A DNA stretch of 59,437 nucleotides, the filler included, from Globobulimina sp. (taxonomy: Eukaryota): assembly GCA_003354225.1 (NCBI GenBank). It is 11 parts of 11 records of this genome, joined end to end, with 100 filler letters (N's around TTAATTAATTAA, not from the genome) between each part and the next. Parts side by side here need not be neighbours in the genome. Positions count along the whole stretch, not along the records: positions 10,854 to 16,172 come from PIVH01000631.1; 10 more parts are not named here. One strand, written 5' to 3'. Below are positions 5,328 through 17,745 of this stretch, piece after piece. Position 1 is the first letter of the stretch, and each line of letters opens with the position of its first letter. The notes under the pieces are model-generated. The model did no database searches, had not been told where the DNA came from, and saw only the letters and a program-made list of their open reading frames with translations. The position numbers and the translations under genes are program-made.

Positions 5328-5427
5328 NNNNNNNNNNNNNNNNNNNNNNNNNNNNNNNNNNNNNNNNNNNNTTAATTAATTAANNNNNNNNNNNNNNNNN
5401 NNNNNNNNNNNNNNNNNNNNNNNNNNN
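5328..5427. other. Artificial contig-joining spacer (first of 10)
   Basis: 44 N + TTAATTAATTAA (stops in all six frames) + 44 N. Identical spacers at 10754-10853, 16173-16272, 21591-21690, 27006-27105, 32419-32518, 37827-37926, 43234-43333, 48637-48736, 54038-54137. Confidence 0.99.
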
Positions 5428-7817: not shown

Positions 7818-10582
7818 ATGAAGAATGCGCAGATCGCTCAACAACTCCCATGCCAACCTCTGATAAATAATGAACTCCGCGTTGACATAAAGACCAACAT
7901 AAATAAAAGCCCACCGATATTACAATCCATGTCAGCTGATCCCTATCATCAACAACAGTCACCACATCATCATAATGTCAATTTATTGGAGTTTCCAATT
8001 GCAACAACTGGCAATAAGAAAAATAATATTAATCACTCTCATTCACCACCAATGCCAGTACCAGTACCAGCCACACAAGTGACACTGACACAACCTCCAT
8101 TACGAATTGTTGCATCTGCGCCAGAATCGTATCATAATAATAACAACAGTTCTGATTTACTTCTGACTATTCCTATATAATAACAATACGATTATTCGCA
8201 CGCAACATACAATACAATATATTATATATAGGGCCAATAATGAATGGAATTCAAATGGCACATAATATGCAACAGCAACAGATTACTTATCCACAACAAC
8301 ACTATTCACAGCCATATATTTATAACGGATCACCATATCACTCACCAACATTATCCTCTGCTCATCATTCATATTCATCATTGCCTGCTGCCCCTATTAA
8401 TATGAATATGAATATGAATATGAGTGCAGATGGTGGTACGACACATATGGCTCAGCAATTACATTCAGCAGCAATCACAATTAATAATAATAATAGTCAA
8501 GGATCGAGATCTGTGCCATTTACCGATGATACACAAATTTATTATCAACAACAGCAACAACAACAACAACAACAACAGGATTATACCTCGCAACAATTAA
8601 GGAGAATGTATCAACAATATCAGGATTATTATAGAAAATATAAACAACAACAACAACAAAATAACCTCAATCAAAATAATGGTGCACAGCAACAACAACA
8701 ACAACATAACCAACAACAACAACCACCACAGCAAGCAAATAATGGCAGATATCCCAATATGAAAAACACTCGACAATATGTATCAAAATCGCATAGCGAA
8801 TACATGAAATATTTGATGAAAACCGTGCGTGACCAAACTGCAGAGATGAACCAAATGCAACAAACAATCTCTCATTTACAGAATAAAATAAATACCAAAA
8901 AATTATTGGAAGAAGATTTTTATTCGTTTTTATCACGCATAGAATTTCCTTCATGGATATCTGACAAAGATAAAGCTTTGTGTCTAAACAAATTATTTGA
9001 AAACGAAAAAGAAAAACTAACTGCTCAACTAAAGGAAGCTGAGTTGTCGCGAAGAGAGGCCGCCACTAAAAATCTACTCTTAGAAACCGGTGTCATTGAA
9101 TTAACCGATGATATATCTGCGTTGCGGGAGCATTTAGAACAAGAAAAACATAAAAACTATTTACAATCTGTTAATCATAATAAAAATTTAGCCGCAAAAT
9201 TAGCAAACCACAACCATAACAATAATAAATATAAAAAATACAATAAAAATCGATATCATAACAATAATAACATGGATTATCCGCCAGAAAATATAGTAAT
9301 TCAAAACCTAATCCGTTCGCAGATTGAATTTTATTTCAGTGATTATAATTTAAAACGCGATAAACGTTTATTGGATCAATTGTGCAGTGACAGAATCGGC
9401 TTTTTGAAGATCGACAGCGTAATGAATTTGACCCGGGTTCGCCAGCTATCCTCGCATCGAAATCAGGTCATAAACAGTCTGCGTAACAGCAAGTTTTTGT
9501 CCTTAACCGCTGACAATGAGTGGGTTGGTCGTTTAGGTTTTGAGCGGCCACAAGAGAAACAATTCCCGTTTAGACGGACCGTATTTGTATTTGGTTTACC
9601 AATGGATTGTTCCGAAAAGTATGTGACAGAAATGTTATCCCCTTTCGGTAAGCTCAGTAAAGTAAAATTTGACCATGGACCCGATACTTTGGACAGATTA
9701 GTATCTGAGAATATGTTTTGTGAGATGAAAGTGTATAAATACCGCGAGATGCGCGTATTATATAACTACAAACAGGAGGTAATGGTCGGTGGCAGTGTGG
9801 AGTACACATGCAATAAATGTAACAAATTAAAACAATGTGATGAAGGTTTTTATGAGACGTGTTCGTATCAAACACTTATATGTTTGCAATGTGCAGCAGC
9901 CAGCGCAGAATTGGTATTACAGAAATGTAAGAATAATGATGGCGATAAGATCTATAACGAGAGAATGATTGAGTTATTATGTGGTAAACCGCCCAGAGAT
10001 GTACATAACACAAAGACTGCTTTAGCTGTATTTACTTCGCAACGCCAAGCCAGTAAATGTGTATATGTGCGGAGCAGAATTGCCTACGATGGCTGTTTTG
10101 CCACTCATTATCATCATTATAGTAAACTAAAAAAGGAGATTGCTTTAACATTACAACCATTCCAGCACAGATTGCGCGAGATTCCACCGAGGAGAGTATT
10201 GCATGATATTAATAATAATAAGTTAAGCATTCAAAATATTGAGATTAGCCCACCGCAATTACATCACGACATTGATAGTTCACCGGAATCATTAACTATC
10301 GATAGTTCTGAATTACGCTCTCAATCTGAATCCGATTCCTCTGAATTACAAATGAATAACAACAAAGACGATGATATACCGAAAATTGTGCCTAAATTCA
10401 CCTCACCAAAGTTGCAGAATTCATCAGCTGGCTCTCGTACTGCGCCTGTTGTTGGCGGCAAAGGGGAAATATATCTAATGCGAGATGCATATAACAAAGT
10501 TAGTAATATTAAAGATAATAAAACTAAAAATAATAATTCATCAATCAATGCATCCTTTGTTGATGATGCTAAACGTCAATAA
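7818..10582 (+). CDS. La-related RNA-binding protein (La motif + RRM) with Q/N-rich N-terminus; probable intron ~8149-8231
   Basis: IRSQIEFYFSDYNLKRDKRL La motif, then RTVFVFGLP RNP2-like motif; polyQ tracts. First-exon boundary is inferred. Confidence 0.8.
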
Positions 10583-10853
10583 ATTCAATTATTGAGGGAA
10601 AGGGTAATAATTGAAAAGTATTTCTATCTGTTTTTGCAAAATGATGGTAAATCGTATTCAAATTTATGTCCCTCATACTCATATACTCCCACTCCACACA
10701 TTTTTTTTATTAAAATATTTATCATCTTTGAGCAAAAATAGCATTTATACTTTNNNNNNNNNNNNNNNNNNNNNNNNNNNNNNNNNNNNNNNNNNNNTTA
10801 ATTAATTAANNNNNNNNNNNNNNNNNNNNNNNNNNNNNNNNNNNNNNNNNNNN

Positions 10854-11465
10854 CAAATCAATTTATTCATCGCAGCTATTATTTATTATAAATGAAACAG
10901 GAGCGCGGCATCTCATTTCTGGCGGCAAATATTCTGAATCATCAGAGTTATATCTCTCCGATGGTGGCTGCCGTGGGCCAAATATTGATAATACGAATTG
11001 TTGCGCATCTCGCAAACCAGCGGTATCCAATGCCTTTGATGATGAATAAGATCGCGATCCGGATGAATAAGATCGCGATGGCGACGAATAAGATCGATAT
11101 CTGGATGCAGAGAGAGCGCGCGATATCGCTGGCTGGCCGTACGTAGCCATATATATCTCACGGAAGGTCGGTGTTGAGCCATCCGAGCCGGAACTGTATG
11201 ATCTGGCCGGCGTTGATGAGCCGGAACTGGACGATCTGGCCGAAGTTGTTGAGCCGGAACTGGACGATCTGGCCGAAGTTGTTGAGCCGGAACAGGATGA
11301 TCTGGCCGAAGTTGTTGATGTTGTCGACGTTGTAGATGATGGAGATGTTGATGGCGATGTTGATGGAGATGTTGTCGACGCTGTAGACACCGATGGCGAC
11401 CTTCTTTCTAATGGCGGGGCGCGCTGGTTCTCCGGGATATCGATAATGTTGCGACCGATTGACAT
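10854..11465 (-). CDS. Hypothetical Ser/Thr-rich repeat protein, divergent from the 11784 ORF
   Basis: ATG at 11465, 200-aa ORF, GC-rich, encodes TTSARSSSSGS and SRSYSSP repeats; may continue by splicing past the contig end. Confidence 0.5.
11041..11103. repeat. 3 x 21-bp tandem repeat (GATGAATAAGATCGCGATCCG-like)
   Basis: Read directly from sequence. Confidence 0.85.
11185..11316. repeat. 4 x 33-bp tandem repeat (GAGCCGGAACTGGACGATCTGGCCGAAGTTGTT-like)
   Basis: Read directly from sequence; unit length is a multiple of 3. Confidence 0.9.
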
Positions 11466-11783
11466 TGCACTTAAATGTTTTGCTGTGACAATGTTTTTAA
11501 ATGTTTAATTTGTGTGTTTGTGAAAATCATAATTTAATCTTTTTTTTTTCTATTTTTCAGAATTGTGAAAAATATGCAATGATGAAAATGCATAGAAAAA
11601 AAAGTTGTATGCATGAAATGAAAAAAAAAAGTCAGTACGGTATTCTTCAATACTCGCAGAGTCACGCAATTCAAACTTTTTCTTCTTTTGTGCTTATTCA
11701 TCACAATATGTGATGATTGATAATGTGACGTAATTTTTTCAAATCTGACGATTTTTTCCAAATCTGTTTTTTCAAATCTGACG

Positions 11784-12197
11784 ATGCCTTTCACGAAAAA
11801 AACTTCCAAAGCTGCCGCCAAAAAACGATGGGACGCTGCAAAGAAGGCAAAAAATGTTCGCAAAGAGACAAGCCGCATAGCAGTGCATATGAAACATCTT
11901 CAAAACTTAAATTATGATGATTTTAAAAAAACATTTACTGGGGCTATAACAGTAAAGTCCCGTCAAAATTATCCAGATCCACCATTTGCTCAATTTAAAG
12001 CAGGAAAAGCAAGTTCCGTTAGCAGCTGGAAAGAGACTCCGAGTTGGTGCCAAGGACCAACAGCAAGCCAAACCAAGCAGGAAATTATGGAAACCTACGG
12101 CTCTCAAAAAAGATTACTGAAAGCACAAAGAAAAAAAAAGATCTCAAGATTTGGGAAAGCTCGAATTTTTAAACACGTGAAACAAGTAAATATTTAA
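11784..12197 (+). CDS. Small, very basic hypothetical protein (137 aa), convergent with the transposase
   Basis: ATG-initiated ORF MPFTKKTSKAAAKKRW..., Lys/Arg-rich; ends 16 bp from the transposase stop. Confidence 0.55.
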   Translation: MPFTKKTSKAAAKKRWDAAKKAKNVRKETSRIAVHMKHLQNLNYDDFKKTFTGAITVKSRQNYPDPPFAQFKAGKASSVSSWKETPSWCQGPTASQTKQEIMETYGSQKRLLKAQRKKKISRFGKARIFKHVKQVNI

Positions 12198-12213
12198 ATA
12201 TCACCACATAAAA

Positions 12214-15200
12214 CTATCTTCTATTATTGTTGCAATGTCTTTTTCGTCGTCCCAGAGGTATCAAATTGCCTCGCTTTCTTTTTTTCTTTCTTGCTTTGCT
12301 TATATCCATTAATGATTCACTGTTTTCATCGATTGATTCGTCACTGCTTACATCGCTTGACTCATTTCCAGAAATTTCTTCTTTGTCATTACTTGCTTTT
12401 TCCTCATCACTTAAATCGCTGTCTTCATCATTTAAATCACTCTTTTTTTCATCCAATCGATCCATAATTGACACTTTTTTTTGATTTCCTTTCTTAATAT
12501 ATTTTATTCTATGTTCATTTATTAATTGTTTCAATTTTTTTGAAACACTTTTAAAATCATCGGGTAATACCAATGTTGTCTTTATATCATAGTCATCGAC
12601 TGATTTTTTTAATATTCTTACTAATTTAATAAAATTCGCTGTGCCCACTTTATATTTTTCAATATCATCGAAATAAATCTTATCGGCTTCATCATAAATT
12701 GATTGTAATTGCTCTTTTTGTATATCTTGAATCGATATAGTTTTTGTAAAATCGCAGATATTATGATCTAAATCACCCTTTTCGACCGTGTCATGTCTAT
12801 TTACCACGGTCATCATCCAATTACTTCCATTCACATTGTTTACATTGATTTTCTGTGGGCAAACCGATGGAAAATGCCACGATAAATGATTGCCGATTGA
12901 TTCCATTGCTTGGCCGGTATATGACGCCGCTCCCAACTTTGTGCTAATCACTGTACAAAGAGTGATAAAAGGAGCTACTTCCTGGCTCAGTATCGTGTAA
13001 AACTGGTCACGCTGACATGTTAACATAAATGCAAAGCAAAGTAAAATGTTCATGTTTTTGAAAAACAGTACAGTCGAAGTTTAAAATGCATGGTACTGTG
13101 AAAACATAGAAACACATACATGCAAGTCTGGACATAAGCGATGCGAATGATATCTTAAGCTGGATCCATATGCATCTAAGCGAATTAATTCATTTTCTAA
13201 TTTGTCATTGAAACTGAATATTTTGTATGCGATCGTTGAGCAATGTTGAAAATGAGCATTTACATATTCAACTGCTAATTGTTTCGTTAATGCATCATTG
13301 CCATCCAAATCTTCACTCAATTTTAATAATATTACAGGCAATGCTGGTAATAATTTGTCGCATTCAGTACCGATTAATGAGCACGATATTTTTTTAGTCT
13401 TTGTTTGCGTTTTTAGCGCCTCTCGCAATCCAATCAATGGCTTCTTAGCGGCGGGAAATTTCTTGATAGCATAATCAATGACATGTGTTGCTTTCGTATC
13501 ATTGTATCTGTAATCAACTGATAATTGATTGGATAAAATATGTGTGAAAACACGTATTTTGACATGCAATCCACAAAAAACAAAAAATACAGAGAACCGC
13601 AATCCTTTTTTAGTAAATGGAATCCCGTTTGCTTTGGCATATAATTTCATTTTATTATGATACCAAGCATCGGATTGACCGGGATTTTCACGCTTCAGTT
13701 TATCTGATTGCTCACCAACCAAATACCATAGCTGTTGTATATAGGATTTTGGTGTGAGAATACGTCCTGTTTTTGATGTTGTTGGTTTGTTAATAATTTG
13801 CTTCTCGAAATCTTGTGGGGAATATTTTGTTGATTGCAACCATACTTTGTAATTAATATCATCTCTAAAATAAAACCATACTTTTTTGCCATTCATAATG
13901 TGATAATGATGTGCATTTTTCTCATCTCCTTTCAATTTAAAATAAACAATCATGAAATATTTATCTTGTTGGCTCCCAACCATCGGCCATATCATATGCA
14001 AATCGCCTTTAATCATCAAATTAAATGTATATTCGATAAATGCCAATCTGTTTTCTTCTTCGTCTATTAATATCTGCAATTTATACTGCTCATTTTCATC
14101 CAATTTATCCGTCCATTCACCATAAAAATCGAAAATATGTTTATCGACATCATCGCAATTTGCTACAACGCATGAATGAGATCCACGATGATGACTGCAC
14201 AAAAGAGAGAAATGTTAACATAAAAGTAAAGGTTAAGTGAAAATGTTTTTGAGTCACACTGAAAATGAATGACAATCAATGGCACGCTTCAGAGACAAAC
14301 ATACTGTGTTGCACCAGGTTTCATTGCTGTGATGGCACATAATACGCCATGCATAAATTTCTTGGATGGAATGTCTGATATTTTGCCTTTTGCATCCAAT
14401 GATAACGCCATCCATTGTACTTGGTTTGATTTTAATATAACACACGATAATGAATCACCATCATCGCTCTTTCTTTCCTCCCAACGAACAGTAATATCTT
14501 CTGGGAATTCATCATTATAAATATCGTATTCAATGTCACCACTCTCTCGCCATAAAAATTCGTCAATCTGTTTTTGATAGTTTGTAATATGAAAAACGTT
14601 TGTTGCCCCGTAATAAATTATATTTGTAGATAATTGATAATAAATTGCTTTTGTTAAAGCAAATAAATCCTTGTGTACAATCAATAAAATGTCTTCATTC
14701 CGTTCTTCTTCATCCAATTCAATCCAATACCTTTGCCATTGCGATATATCACGATAACGTACCAATGAGTCCATGTATGCTGTACATTTTTTATATTCAT
14801 CGGAATTCACAAATTGATTAATTATCTGTCCATCATTCATTTGTTTCCGTTTTGATACTCCATCTTTAATACAATGTGTTGATATTTTGGTAATTAAATT
14901 GCGATATTGCTGGTTTGTACGCTGCGATTGCTTGGTTTTGCATATTGCATACCAATCTTTATATAATTTTGACAATAAATGCTTGACATTTTTCAGATCC
15001 TTTTCATATTTAATATTATATAATTTTTTAATTTTATTATCAGATTCTACGCATAAAAATTGCATCTTCTTTGAGCCGGTTAATATTTTCGTTGCTAACT
15101 TAAATCGTCCATTATCATCCAATGCATTATCTGCAGCTGTCTGCAATTCATTTATTCGCTGATTCATTGTCCGCGGCGCTATAATTGTTTTGCGGCATTG

Positions 15201-16085
15201 TCGTTTTTGCGACAAAGCACTGCCCTCAAATAATTTTTTCATATATCTTTTCGTGTTTTGGTGCTGCTCAAAATTATCAGCTGCAACTTCGCCAATTATT
15301 GACGCCATTTTTGTCTCTAAAATCGACCCAATTAATACCATCATTTGCGATTTATGTACATATATTTGATTCACTCCATTTGTATCCAAAACAGATATCT
15401 CTGTCGGGATATTAGTTGCATTTATCATTGTATTTGTCATTTTTTTTTGTGGGATTGGTGTGTCTGTATTTAATTGCTGTAATTCTGTGATTGGTGTAAT
15501 GTTTGATGTCATTGATCTGGTTCTGCGTCGGTAGGAAATTAAATTGTTAATCATCGGTGTTTCTGGCTGCTTTTTTTGTGGCTGCTTGGTTTGTGGCTGC
15601 GTTGTTTCTTTTGATTGCTCTTTTTTTTCATCATTTTGTTTACTTTTTATCTTAGCCTTTCTCGCCTTTTTTGCTTTTTTATTGCTCTTTAAAATATCCG
15701 TATTACACAATATACTCAATTGATTCCATATAGATTGATAATTTGCTTTGATTGTATTTGTTTCTTTTTTATTGCTACCAAATACCCATTTTTTGCTTGA
15801 ATAATATGTTTCTAATGATTCGTCATCATCTGTGTGCAATGCATATTGTTTTGTGCATTTTATAATTTGTGTTTGTGATTTATTTGATGACCATGCTGTA
15901 TAATATTCATCGACAGATAAATATGATGTCGATTTATGTTTATCTTCAACCGATCTGTTTCGAATTGTCCATTTATCGGTATATTGCGGCAATGATTTGC
16001 ATGTGAAAATACGCCACGAATTGGTGAATCCGGGAAAAGTGAATCGACGCTTTGTAGGAAGCGTTGCGTTTGTTACTTTCACCAT
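12214..16085 (-). mobile_element. Spliced RAG1/Transib-like DDE transposase gene (~1200 aa); introns 14195-14304 and 13012-13119, possible third in-frame intron ~13510-13597
   Basis: Three ORFs join in frame through GTATGT..AG introns. Motifs occur in RAG1 order: APRTMNQRINELQ, NQQYRNL, ALSLDAKG (D), KGDLHMIWPMVG (D), SLIGTECDKLL, GAASYTGQAMESIGN (E). Confidence 0.65.
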
Positions 16086-16272
16086 AATGTAAAGCAAGAG
16101 AGATAAATGTTGAAGTTTAAGGTTTTTCACTCAGGATCCATATATGGTCATCGGGATCCATGGATGCAGAAANNNNNNNNNNNNNNNNNNNNNNNNNNNN
16201 NNNNNNNNNNNNNNNNTTAATTAATTAANNNNNNNNNNNNNNNNNNNNNNNNNNNNNNNNNNNNNNNNNNNN

Positions 16273-16391
16273 GCCAAATGGAAGAACAAAACAATATAAT
16301 CATGTACAAACTAACAAATGTTACAAATACTTACAATGCAGTTTGTACCCCATCCACCATCAACGATGTTCCAGTACAAAACTTTGATTCA
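16273..16391. repeat. 119-bp terminal direct repeat of contig 4, identical to 21472-21590
   Basis: GCCAAATGGAAGAAC...CTTTGATTCA occurs at both contig ends. Confidence 0.97.
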
Positions 16392-16507
16392 GCACTGGCA
16401 AAAAACAAACATGCAAAAGCCACCTCCTTTGCTGTCCCAGTCCTTTTAATAATTTGTTCTTTGCATTTAATTCTTTCCCATTCTTCAAAACTCCATTTAT
16501 GATCTTT
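16331..16507 (-). pseudogene. Orphan 3' exon of a short-chain dehydrogenase/reductase (not in the ORF track)
   Basis: After a CACAG acceptor it reads KDHKWSFEEWERIKCKEQIIKRTGTAKEVAFACLFFASAESKFCTGTSLMVDGVQTAL*, the typical SDR C-terminus. No 5' part is present in the contig. Confidence 0.75.
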
Positions 16508-16596
16508 CTGTGAGATTTGTTACTTTGTAAAATGATTATACCTCTGCATACTTTGATACTTTTCTGAAAACAGCGCAGTACCTTCTAACTCAAACA

Positions 16597-17745
16597 ATGC
16601 TGCTTTCAATAATTGGGCTTTTATCCTGTTGTTTTATTGCCTTCCTTTGTTTTCGTTGGCATCTTCATAACAGATTCGCCAGTATCCGTTCCGAACAGCG
16701 AAAGAAATTCTTGCTTCGGAAAAGAACAAATGTGGAGCATATAACAACAACCATTCACGACATAGCTTCAGAAATTTGGAAAATTAGCTCCCAATCAACA
16801 CCCAATTGCAACACGAATGAAACAGCAGATTGCAGCTCAAAACTTATTTACATACTGATCCCCGGCAATCCCGGCATATCATCGGCATACGTTCATTGGA
16901 TGCAAATTTTAGTTTCGATGTTTGTGGCACAACGAAGTAAAACTTATGATTCAATGGACGTATATATAATGAGTCATGCCGGGCATTCTGGCGATCCCTG
17001 GAATTGTAATGAAAGCAAATTATTTAATTTAGACGATCAAATCCAACATAAAATACATTGCATTGAATACATAATCAGCAAAAACTACAAACATAACAAT
17101 AAAAACTGTCATTATGTATTTGCTGGACATTCAATCGGAGCCTTTATTTGCTTAAAAAGTATAAAACATTTTGCGTTTATTGATATTAAACAGATTCATT
17201 TGTGGACGCCAACCATCGTAAATATTGGGAAAAGCTCAAATGGACTGCGGACACAAAAACTATTCAAATATTTCTCTTTTTTGTTCCCAGTGATTCAATT
17301 TGCGAGTTCCTATATTTTACCTTTTTGGATATGTAAGTTATTGGCGCCGCCGTCTTTGTGTAATATCGAAGTGGCGATTCGAGCGATTCAATGTAAAAAT
17401 TCCAAGCTCTTTCTAAATATGGTGGCAATGGCACAGCAGGAATTTATTGACGTGGTAGGTTTGGATGGAACGGAGATTGATCGCTTATTACAGCATCACA
17501 GGAAACGAATTGTGTTTTATTGGGCGGATATCGATGGATGGGCTCATAAACAGTGTCGTATTGACATAAAGGATCTATTCAAAAAACAGCATGACGAGGA
17601 AATGAATGACATCTTTGCATTCTGGGAAGTTGACAGAAATATTAAGCATGGATTAATGGTGGATGAGTCGGCAAAAAATGTTGAAAAAAGGTTATCTCGA
17701 AAAATTTTAAATTGGGTTCATAACGAATTAACCATTGATAATTGA
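16597..17745 (+). CDS. Lipid-droplet-associated hydrolase (LDAH/C2orf43-like alpha/beta hydrolase)
   Basis: IPGNPG, SHAGH, LDDQIQHK, GHSIGAF motifs; N-terminal hydrophobic anchor. Confidence 0.85.
   Translation: MLLSIIGLLSCCFIAFLCFRWHLHNRFASIRSEQRKKFLLRKRTNVEHITTTIHDIASEIWKISSQSTPNCNTNETADCSSKLIYILIPGNPGISSAYVHWMQILVSMFVAQRSKTYDSMDVYIMSHAGHSGDPWNCNESKLFNLDDQIQHKIHCIEYIISKNYKHNNKNCHYVFAGHSIGAFICLKSIKHFAFIDIKQIHLWTPTIVNIGKSSNGLRTQKLFKYFSFLFPVIQFASSYILPFWICKLLAPPSLCNIEVAIRAIQCKNSKLFLNMVAMAQQEFIDVVGLDGTEIDRLLQHHRKRIVFYWADIDGWAHKQCRIDIKDLFKKQHDEEMNDIFAFWEVDRNIKHGLMVDESAKNVEKRLSRKILNWVHNELTIDN

Follow-up and report, generated by a model that had tools for sequence, protein, structure and literature searches.

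A three-exon gene of Globobulimina that may encode a zinc-less and very distant relative of RAG1 and Transib

We describe a gene of Globobulimina sp. whose product we read, with a probability of roughly 0.55, as a zinc-less and deeply divergent DDE enzyme of the RAG1/Transib type, low-copy and under purifying selection. The evidence suggests a very distant kinship with RAG1 and Transib. The gene lies on a 5.3-kb contig (PIVH01000631.1, positions 10854-16172) within the window, that is, the whole stretch of 59,437 nucleotides from assembly GCA_003354225.1 that was analysed. The origin of V(D)J recombination is bound up with the history of RAG1 and Transib. These form a small superfamily, of which one broad screen counts 35 transposases (bioRxiv 10.1101/2021.09.26.461848). 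RAG1-like genes have already been published from protists, for example AanRAG1L of a pelagophyte, a unicellular eukaryote (PMC9435367). We found no paper tying RAG1/Transib to Foraminifera or Rhizaria; the supplementary tables of PMC9435367, which list 'fragments in other primitive eukaryotes', might already contain such sequences.

Gene structure

Three open reading frames follow each other on the minus strand (16130-14289, 14202-13081 and 13053-12214). Joined in frame via two introns they give a coding sequence of 3,651 nt (16085-12214, minus strand) for a protein of 1,217 amino acids, which starts with the ATG at 16085 and has no internal stop. The gene is composed as follows.

Exon 1: 14305..16085, minus strand; ATG at 16085-16083; residues 1-593 and two bases of codon 594
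Intron 1: 14195..14304, minus strand; predicted; 110 nt, phase 2, GTATGT...TATGTTAACAT...GTGCAG
Exon 2: 13120..14194, minus strand; residues 594/595-952
Intron 2: 13012..13119, minus strand; predicted; 108 nt, phase 0, GTATGT...TATGTTAACATGTCAG
Exon 3: 12214..13011, minus strand; residues 953-1217 and stop codon

Common to both introns are the GTATGT donor, the TATGTTAACAT element and an AG acceptor, and the second reading frame is terminated by an in-frame TAA inside intron 2. All three exons are collinear on the uninterrupted 787-aa homologue P0010, where the alignment columns adjoin at both junctions. The exons tile on the transcript-derived homologue P0007 too, and junction 2 is crossed without a break by P0005, P0007 and P0009. 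L001, a copy of about 70% identity, has an intron at the position of intron 1. A spliced joint at either intron was not found in the contigs of four runs; X1 behaves as genomic DNA. Judged from the sequence, the model of one spliced three-exon gene with predicted introns holds, and the original prediction that the three reading frames make up one protein of about 1200 residues is borne out. The standard code applies, because the ciliate code (table 6) gives only overlapping junk reading frames and was rejected.

The N-terminal ~450 residues of exon 1 are homologue-free, and its C-terminal ~110 residues are conserved with P0010, P0012 and L001. Here lies D564 (14394-14396) within L-x-L-D-A-x-G-K. 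Exon 2 carries D658 (14002-14004) within G-D-L-H-M, the [C/D]xxH motif as C801...H804 (13575-13564) and the invariant G869 (13371-13369). Exon 3 brings the invariant Y957 (12999-12997) and P966 as well as E989 (12901-12903) within Q-A-M-E-S-I-G-N; after E989 follows an acidic and Ser-rich tail with a KKKRKR-type basic patch at its end. D564, D658 and E989 are the very codons that had been proposed by eye as D, D and E, and the six strings quoted along with them are all present in the translation.

A small, probably foraminiferan family

Among 1.84 billion representatives we found ten homologues (E 2e-77 to 1e-4). The two with a name both come from foraminiferan transcriptomes. P0011 (1,068 aa, tandem repeats, 10 short stretches) was removed from the family as spurious. 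L001 is one metagenome locus found by a search with alignment A4; the A4 search of viral contigs and genome contigs found no related locus. A word-index homology search returned nothing for exon 2 among longer proteins and nothing for residues 270-613 of the first reading frame, and with alignment A2 it returned P0010 itself only. The family is small and so far met only under foraminiferan labels.

Family members are only 20-35% identical to each other. The proposed D/D/E residues are conserved nevertheless: D564 is invariant in 3/3 rows (4/4 with L001), D658 in 8/8 and E989 in 5/5. The His of [C/D]xxH is invariant in all six rows, within [C/D]-x-[L/V]-H, and so is an Arg four residues after it (6/6); the same is true for the columns of G869 (7/7), Y957 and P966 (5/5 each). 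A comparison of 250 codons with the L001 copy gives a dN/dS of 0.23. We are dealing with an intact, low-copy gene that has been shaped by purifying selection.

Comparison with RAG1 and Transib

No sequence search connects the protein with RAG1. Pfam hmmscan gave no RAG1 family for the three exons (E<=1), for 11 hits (E<=1) or for 13 alignment rows (E<=10), and Pfam detected neither a RING nor zinc fingers at the N-terminus. In the PDB, neither phmmer with the three reading frames nor hmmsearch with alignment A2 gave a RAG1 or Transib chain at E<=10. The original prediction had placed six RAG1 strings on the protein by eye. We slid these strings ungapped (BLOSUM62) over the spliced protein and over 1,000 shuffles. 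The proposed position is the best match for none of the six strings; it ranks second for the nonamer-binding string and third for the second string. The best score was reached by 71, 956, 629, 389, 900 and 289 of the 1,000 shuffles, respectively, so that the six matches are within chance. In exon 1, the matches to the nonamer-binding string and to SQYHKMYR are supported neither by the shuffles nor by the ESM Atlas, where residues 290-613 of the first reading frame gave a best score of 0.83 and no lead.

The six landmarks of RAG1 (PMC6854553, also for L794 next to H795) recur here in the same order, with these positions and intervals.

RAG1: D600, D708, H795, G851, Y935, E962; intervals 108, 87, 56, 84, 27
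Globobulimina protein: D564, D658, H804, G869, Y957, E989; intervals 94, 146, 65, 88, 32
P0010: intervals 101, 155, 68, 89, 37

Of the five intervals, four resemble those of RAG1; the remaining one, from the second Asp to the His, is about 60 aa longer. The common order with RAG1 and RAGL can be written D...D...L-H...G...Y...E-S-x-G-N, and the immediate contexts of the residues are in agreement too: D-G-x-G in RAG1 versus D-[A/G]-x-G in the family at the first Asp, D-x-K versus D-L-[K/H] at the second, L-H-x-x-I versus [L/V]-H-x-x-[I/V/N] at the His, and E-S-G-N versus E-S-I-G-N at the Glu. Within the family the two Asp are 94-101 aa apart. From the second Asp to the Glu we count 331-349 aa, which exceeds the 206-214 aa of Transib and the 253 aa of RAG1 (PMC1131882).

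In the ESM Atlas, the first match of exon 2 is a cluster of RAG1 fragments (score 0.96, 178/256 features shared), 79% of whose members carry PF26101/PF26104. Ranks 1-4 and 8 carry the RAG1 ZnC2/ZnH2 families (credited hits 3+3+1+1+2), and among the matches listed there is no transposase family besides RAG1. In a low-confidence AF2 model of P0010, a strand ends just before D118, D219 sits between strand and helix, and E568 is part of a helix; the likewise low-confidence model of exon 2 has D658 between strand and helix. VIA structural alignments of the two models match RAG1 791/792-897/899 (mouse numbering), the exon 2 model aligning to 792-897. Both alignments start at the first residue of the [C/D]xxH motif and at RAG1 791/792, and their register is that of [C/D]xxH on the H795 motif, H795 being the active-site His at the beginning of the helical ZnH2 region of RAG1; the helical region past the His aligns to RAG1 792-897. 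The structural matches are at the level of a generic helical bundle. Transib, Hermes/hAT and P-element chains are not among the matches listed (50 rows in three VIA lists), and the best Foldseek match of the exon 2 model is to BAR domains with E 0.44. Atlas, structural alignment and landmark order are three weaker lines that point to RAG1. The proposed RAG1/Transib affinity is not upheld by any sequence statistic; the Atlas neighbours and the alignments of the two models support it independently but weakly.

RAG1-like and Transib proteins are taken to share a conserved zinc site made up of ZnC2 and ZnH2 (PMC1131882, PMC7204232). Of the SxxCxxC (ZnC2) motif after the second Asp, two Cys are present in none of the eight rows. 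P0010 and P0012 have one Cys 19 residues past the second Asp, presumably at the position of the first zinc Cys of RAG1; the other rows have V, I or L there. As to ZnH2, the stretch from the invariant Tyr to the Glu contains no conserved His in the five rows, and an H-x-H-x2-C-x3-H stretch of the Globobulimina protein (residues 943-952) is not conserved across the family. The absence of a conserved CxxC past the second Asp and of a conserved His pair ahead of the Glu, already suspected from the single sequence, is confirmed.

From RAG1 and RAGL the protein differs in the missing zinc CxxC and His-His ligands and in undetectable sequence similarity. Further on, a RAG2-like neighbour was not seen within the 5.3-kb contig, and the pelagophyte AanRAGL genes are single-exon (PMC9435367), whereas two spliceosomal introns are predicted here. 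A stand-alone DDE enzyme without RAG2 partner would suit Transib better than RAGL, and members of the superfamily typically occur rarely and in a patchy manner. In Transib, however, SxxCxxC is perfectly conserved.

Alternative readings

The protein could be a DDE transposase, or a derivative of one, that belongs to a different eukaryotic cut-and-paste superfamily, be it known (P, hAT, Kolobok, MULE, CMC) or new, which likewise has a [C/D](2)H motif and in which an insertion domain separates beta5 from the Glu helix; its likeness to RAG1 would then lie in features common to all of these. We regard this as unlikely, albeit with an appreciable chance. P-element/THAP9 and hAT transposases do share these two features and the DDE triad with the protein, the distance from the second Asp to the Glu matches the 325 aa of hAT, the defining zinc motif of RAG1/Transib is lacking, and a generic helical bundle would fit this reading as well. 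However, no hAT, P, MULE, CMC, PIF or piggyBac match was found by Pfam in 13 rows at E<=10. There is no THAP or P-transposase match, although P-element/THAP9 transposases are marked by a THAP DNA-binding domain and a GTP-binding insertion; BED and hAT-dimerisation matches, the latter to the C-terminal domain that in hAT holds the catalytic Glu, are also absent, a test which very divergent members could escape. In P elements [C/D](2)H follows directly after beta5, 36 residues past the second Asp, but here the distance is 143-152 residues, so a separate long module lies in between, as in RAG1 with H795 87 residues past D708. Moreover, the Atlas neighbours are, among the matches listed, RAG1 clusters only.

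It is improbable that we deal with a lineage-specific foraminiferan protein which is not a nuclease, where the two Asp and the Glu have a structural role or are there incidentally, while chance accounts for the RAG1 signals. Such a protein would explain why similarity to known families is not significant, why the AF2 models are of low confidence and why the motif matches are within chance. Against it, three acidic residues together with His, Gly and Tyr are invariant among members of such low identity, the order of residues and the predicted secondary-structure elements fit an RNase H-like DDE core, and two different tools indicate the same part of the same protein that had been named beforehand. 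Finally, it is very improbable that the three reading frames are genes of their own or parts of a pseudogene interrupted by stops: in the X1 genomic contigs both introns are unspliced, as expected of DNA, but both gaps have the donors, the shared TATGTTAACAT, the acceptors and the right phases, the exons abut on uninterrupted homologues (one from a transcriptome) with no lost or extra columns, intron 1 is conserved in position in L001, and dN/dS is low.

Proposed mechanism

For the zinc-less RAG1/Transib-type enzyme, which we prefer, we suggest the following. The protein would be nuclear, and its C-terminal ~700 residues would form a DDE (RNase H-like) nuclease or transposase core, into which a large and mostly helical domain is inserted. 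D564, D658 and E989 could hold two divalent metal ions, and H804 and Y957 may line the active site like H795 and Y935 of RAG1. The enzyme would nick DNA and then make a double-strand break by transesterification, as RAG1, Transib and hAT do. As the gene is low-copy, intact and under purifying selection, it would therefore encode the transposase of a rare functional DNA transposon or be a transposase-derived host gene.

If the kinship is true, RAG1/Transib would gain a rhizarian branch, the enzyme would be able to work without the ZnC2/ZnH2 zinc site and the family would be a natural test of the purpose of this site. If the kinship fails, what remains is a DDE-like protein family of Foraminifera that has not been described before. 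A bolder reading, which we consider decidedly improbable, is that Foraminifera keep a sister lineage of RAG1/Transib, which lost the structural zinc site, as a domesticated recombinase for programmed DNA rearrangement or elimination. Such an enzyme might be used in the foraminiferan nuclear cycle, encoded by intron-bearing genes that are low-copy and under purifying selection, and would by analogy parallel RAG in vertebrates and the piggyBac-derived enzymes in ciliates.

Ends of the contig

Elements of the RAG1/Transib superfamily are expected to have RSS-like terminal inverted repeats that start with CAC, and target-site duplications of 5 bp. Upstream of the ATG, the contig extends for 87 nt. 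Between its ends there is no inverted repeat, and a search of 10500-17500 gave N-linker artefacts and weak AT-rich pairs only. The heptamer CACWRTG of Transib occurs nowhere in the contig (10854-16172); the ends of any element would lie beyond it. The two other open reading frames of the contig have no Pfam match. Two stretches flank or overlap the gene (no strand assigned).

11552..12183: repeated stretch, ~620 nt; starts 31 nt past the stop codon; several divergent versions in the best-covering run
16005..16172: 5′ end of the gene with the 87 nt before it, to the contig end; variant contigs in the best-covering run

The first may be an unrelated repeat or a subterminal part of the element. 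At the second, additional variant contigs occur in the best-covering run, as does a single skip of 76 nt.

Gene structure

The window consists of eleven pieces of ~5.3 kb, seemingly ordered by size and joined by N44-TTAATTAATTAA-N44 linkers:

5328-5427, 10754-10853, 16173-16272 and seven more, every ~5.4 kb: linkers

Since the pieces are separate, neighbouring genes in the window are uninformative on synteny. The gene of interest sits on the piece 10854-16172, and the remaining pieces carry ordinary eukaryotic genes, e.g. for Vps41, PPR, La, Suv3 helicase and BTB/BACK proteins. The window genes use the standard code (table 6 gives just overlapping junk ORFs) and the G+C content is 30-44%.

Three consecutive minus-strand open reading frames of 613, 373 and 279 codons are separated by two short gaps, with TATGTTAACAT close to the 3′ end of both. 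We read the gaps as introns:

14304-14195, minus strand: intron 1, 110 nt, phase 2, GTATGT at the start and AG at the end
13119-13012, minus strand: intron 2, 108 nt, phase 0, GTATGT at the start and AG at the end

Scripted joining of the exons gives an unbroken frame of 1,217 amino acids from the ATG at 16085 to the stop at 12214-12216, and an in-frame TGA lies just 5′ of the ORF. The original prediction that the three ORFs splice in frame into one protein of ~1200 amino acids is thus borne out. On the uninterrupted 787-aa homologue P0010, exon 2 follows directly on the end of exon 1, and exon 3 on exon 2, with neither overlap nor lost columns in the family alignment A2. The second junction is crossed unbroken by the homologues P0005, P0007 and P0009, the source of P0007 being a transcriptome-based set. 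A second copy on the metagenome contig L001, ~70% identical at the protein level, has an intron located as intron 1. These homologues support both predicted exon junctions. In X1, the one sequencing run that covers the gene well, the introns are unspliced; this run behaves as genomic DNA. That the three ORFs do not form one gene is very improbable.

A protein family with invariant residues

An exhaustive phmmer search of 1.84 billion representatives with P0001 (exons 2 and 3, intron 2 read through, X at the stop) returned 11 matches at E ≤ 0.001. Ten were kept (E from 2e-77 to 1e-4); P0011, a tandem-repeat protein, was removed. Word-index searches of 5.8 billion proteins yielded no further homologues. 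Names are attached to two of the ten, both from EukProt, namely Bolivina argentea and Nonionella stella. Both species are Foraminifera, which makes a foraminiferan the probable source of the window. Identity to the window protein ranges from 20 to 70%, with several deeply diverged lineages (~55-70%, ~32% and ~22%). The invariant residues are, in window protein numbering:

D564: first Asp, 3/3 rows (4/4 including L001)
D658: second Asp, 8/8 rows
C801/H804: [C/D]-x-[L/V]-H motif, His in 6/6 rows, followed four residues past the His by an Arg (6/6 rows)
G869: G-x3-D-x6-P motif, 7/7 rows
Y957/P966: Tyr and a Pro nine residues downstream, 5/5 rows
E989: Glu of E-[S/N]-x-G, 5/5 rows

The conservation shows that D564, D658 and E989, which had been proposed as catalytic residues, are genuine positions of the family. 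AF2 models, of low confidence, put them after a strand, between strand and helix, and on a helix, respectively, a placement which would match that of an RNase H-like DDE core. Taken as a whole, the models are of poor quality (mean pLDDT 50.4 for exon 2 and 40.5 for P0010). We regard it as quite improbable that the protein is not a nuclease.

Relationship to RAG1 and Transib

Kinship with RAG1/Transib is not indicated by the sequence statistics. The Pfam library searched includes RAG1 models, and no family was found in the exons (E ≤ 1), the 11 matches (E ≤ 1) or the 13 rows of A2 (E ≤ 10). Likewise, among all PDB sequences, neither phmmer with each of the three ORFs nor hmmsearch with A2 retrieved a chain of RAG1 or of Transib (E ≤ 10). 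The kinship had been proposed from six pairs of motifs, and these pairings do not exceed chance: in an ungapped BLOSUM62 scan against 1,000 shuffles, none of the six RAG1 strings scored best at its proposed position, and the best scores were reached by 71-956 shuffles. Among the homologues, the Glu string matches best at the family Glu column in P0010 (score reached by 178 of 1,000 shuffles) and the first-Asp string at the family Asp column in P0012 (339 of 1,000).

SxxCxxC after the second Asp is described as perfectly conserved in RAG1 and Transib (Kapitonov and Jurka, PMC1131882) and ZnC2/ZnH2 as having four conserved zinc ligands (Martin et al., PMC7204232). A Cys pair after the second Asp occurs in 0 of 8 family rows, and none of the 5 rows covering the invariant Tyr and Glu has a conserved His between them; the remark that the protein is zinc-less is correct family-wide. 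P0010 and P0012 have a single Cys 19 residues past the second Asp, which we take to be the place of the first RAG1 zinc ligand. Judged from the alignment, the missing zinc site counts against membership in RAG1/Transib.

Three lines, however, point to RAG1, namely the ESM Atlas, structure and landmarks. In RAG1, the segment flanked by the second Asp and the Glu is ZnC2-ZnH2, and exon 2 should match it if the proposed D/D/E assignment is right. With exon 2 alone and no hint, the nearest Atlas clusters are RAG1 fragments with PF26101 (ZnC2) and PF26104 (ZnH2); the top score is 0.96 (178/256 shared features), followed by 0.95, 0.93 and 0.93, at a recognition value of 1783, below the tool's 2300 mark. 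For structure, the AF2 models were compared with 48,161 PDB representatives; residues 210-310 of the exon 2 model have pLDDT 57-87. Finally, the invariant residues of the family have the order of the RAG1 landmarks, in similar local contexts (D600-G601-M602-G603, D708-E709-K710, L794-H795...I798, G851, Y935 and E962-S963-G964-N965; PMC6854553).

Table. Intervals between landmark residues
Protein: Asp-Asp, Asp-His, His-Gly, Gly-Tyr, Tyr-Glu
RAG1: 108, 87, 56, 84, 27
Window protein: 94, 146, 65, 88, 32
P0010: 101, 155, 68, 89, 37

Just the Asp-His interval differs strongly from RAG1, where this segment carries zinc-binding cysteines.

What had been observed thus largely stands, and the RAG1/Transib interpretation is plausible and unproven. 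We favour a zinc-less RAG1/Transib-type enzyme with a probability of about 0.55. Membership in a different DDE superfamily, known or new, is on the whole unlikely and remains a serious rival, because P, hAT and other superfamilies also have a [C/D](2)H motif and an insertion domain (PMC8230255) and because the D2-E distance of the family is hAT-like. The Atlas list for exon 2 contains no other transposase family.

RAG1-like transposons of the unicellular eukaryote Aureococcus, RAG1L fragments of other protists and Transib-like genes of bacteria, fungi and plants have been published (PMC9435367), so a RAG1-like protein in a protist is not new in itself. If the kinship to RAG1 is true, the novelty would lie in a foraminiferan, intron-bearing lineage that lacks the zinc site and has diverged so far that Pfam and phmmer miss it. 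In the literature searched, which includes the main text of PMC9435367, no paper links RAG1/Transib to Foraminifera or Rhizaria.

Mobile element or host gene

The evidence on mobility is mixed. Two long X1 contigs cover the coding body with 0 differences. Extra divergent X1 contigs lie on 11552-12183, just 3′ of the stop codon, and on 16005-16053. Internal skips in single contigs (160 nt at 13338-13499 and 76 nt at 16053-16130) imply that other, partly deleted versions exist. Over 250 codons shared with L001, dN is 0.18, dS 0.80 and dN/dS 0.23, so the protein was under selection through most of the divergence of the two copies. Neither inverted repeats at the contig ends nor a CACWRTG heptamer were found in the contig, which reaches 87 nt upstream of the ATG. 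The small convergent ORF 11784-12197 is without Pfam domains and does not encode a kelch protein of the RAG2 kind. These observations agree with an old and rare family of DNA transposons whose copies have decayed; alternatively, this may be a host gene family.

On L001 (1,788 nt) similarity is lost past residue 744, and directly thereafter follows an intact DUF4442 (hotdog-fold) ORF (1122-1631, E 1.9e-53). The join may reflect chimeric assembly, rearrangement or gene transfer.

Other features of the contig

The ~620 nt at 11552-12183 have many divergent X1 contigs, with a summed word depth of up to 198 vs 14.6 on the gene, and also lie under one contig of run X2. The plus-strand ORF 11784-12197, Lys-rich and 137 codons long, is mostly within this stretch. 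Further downstream of the gene lies another ORF:

10863-11465, minus strand: Ser/Thr-rich ORF, 200 codons, near-repeats of STTSARSSSSGS units

Pfam gives no domain for it. A skip of 153 nt in one X1 contig suggests that the number of repeats varies. In exon 1, a 744-nt X2 contig (other organism label and study, 2024) matches 15168-15883 with just 2 differences; the X2 sample contains either this species or a copy that is nearly identical. A ~33-nt AT-rich stretch of exon 1 (15005-15040) is covered by very deep short contigs (summed depth 5,248 in X1 and 1,486 in the run X4) and is simple sequence common elsewhere in these samples.
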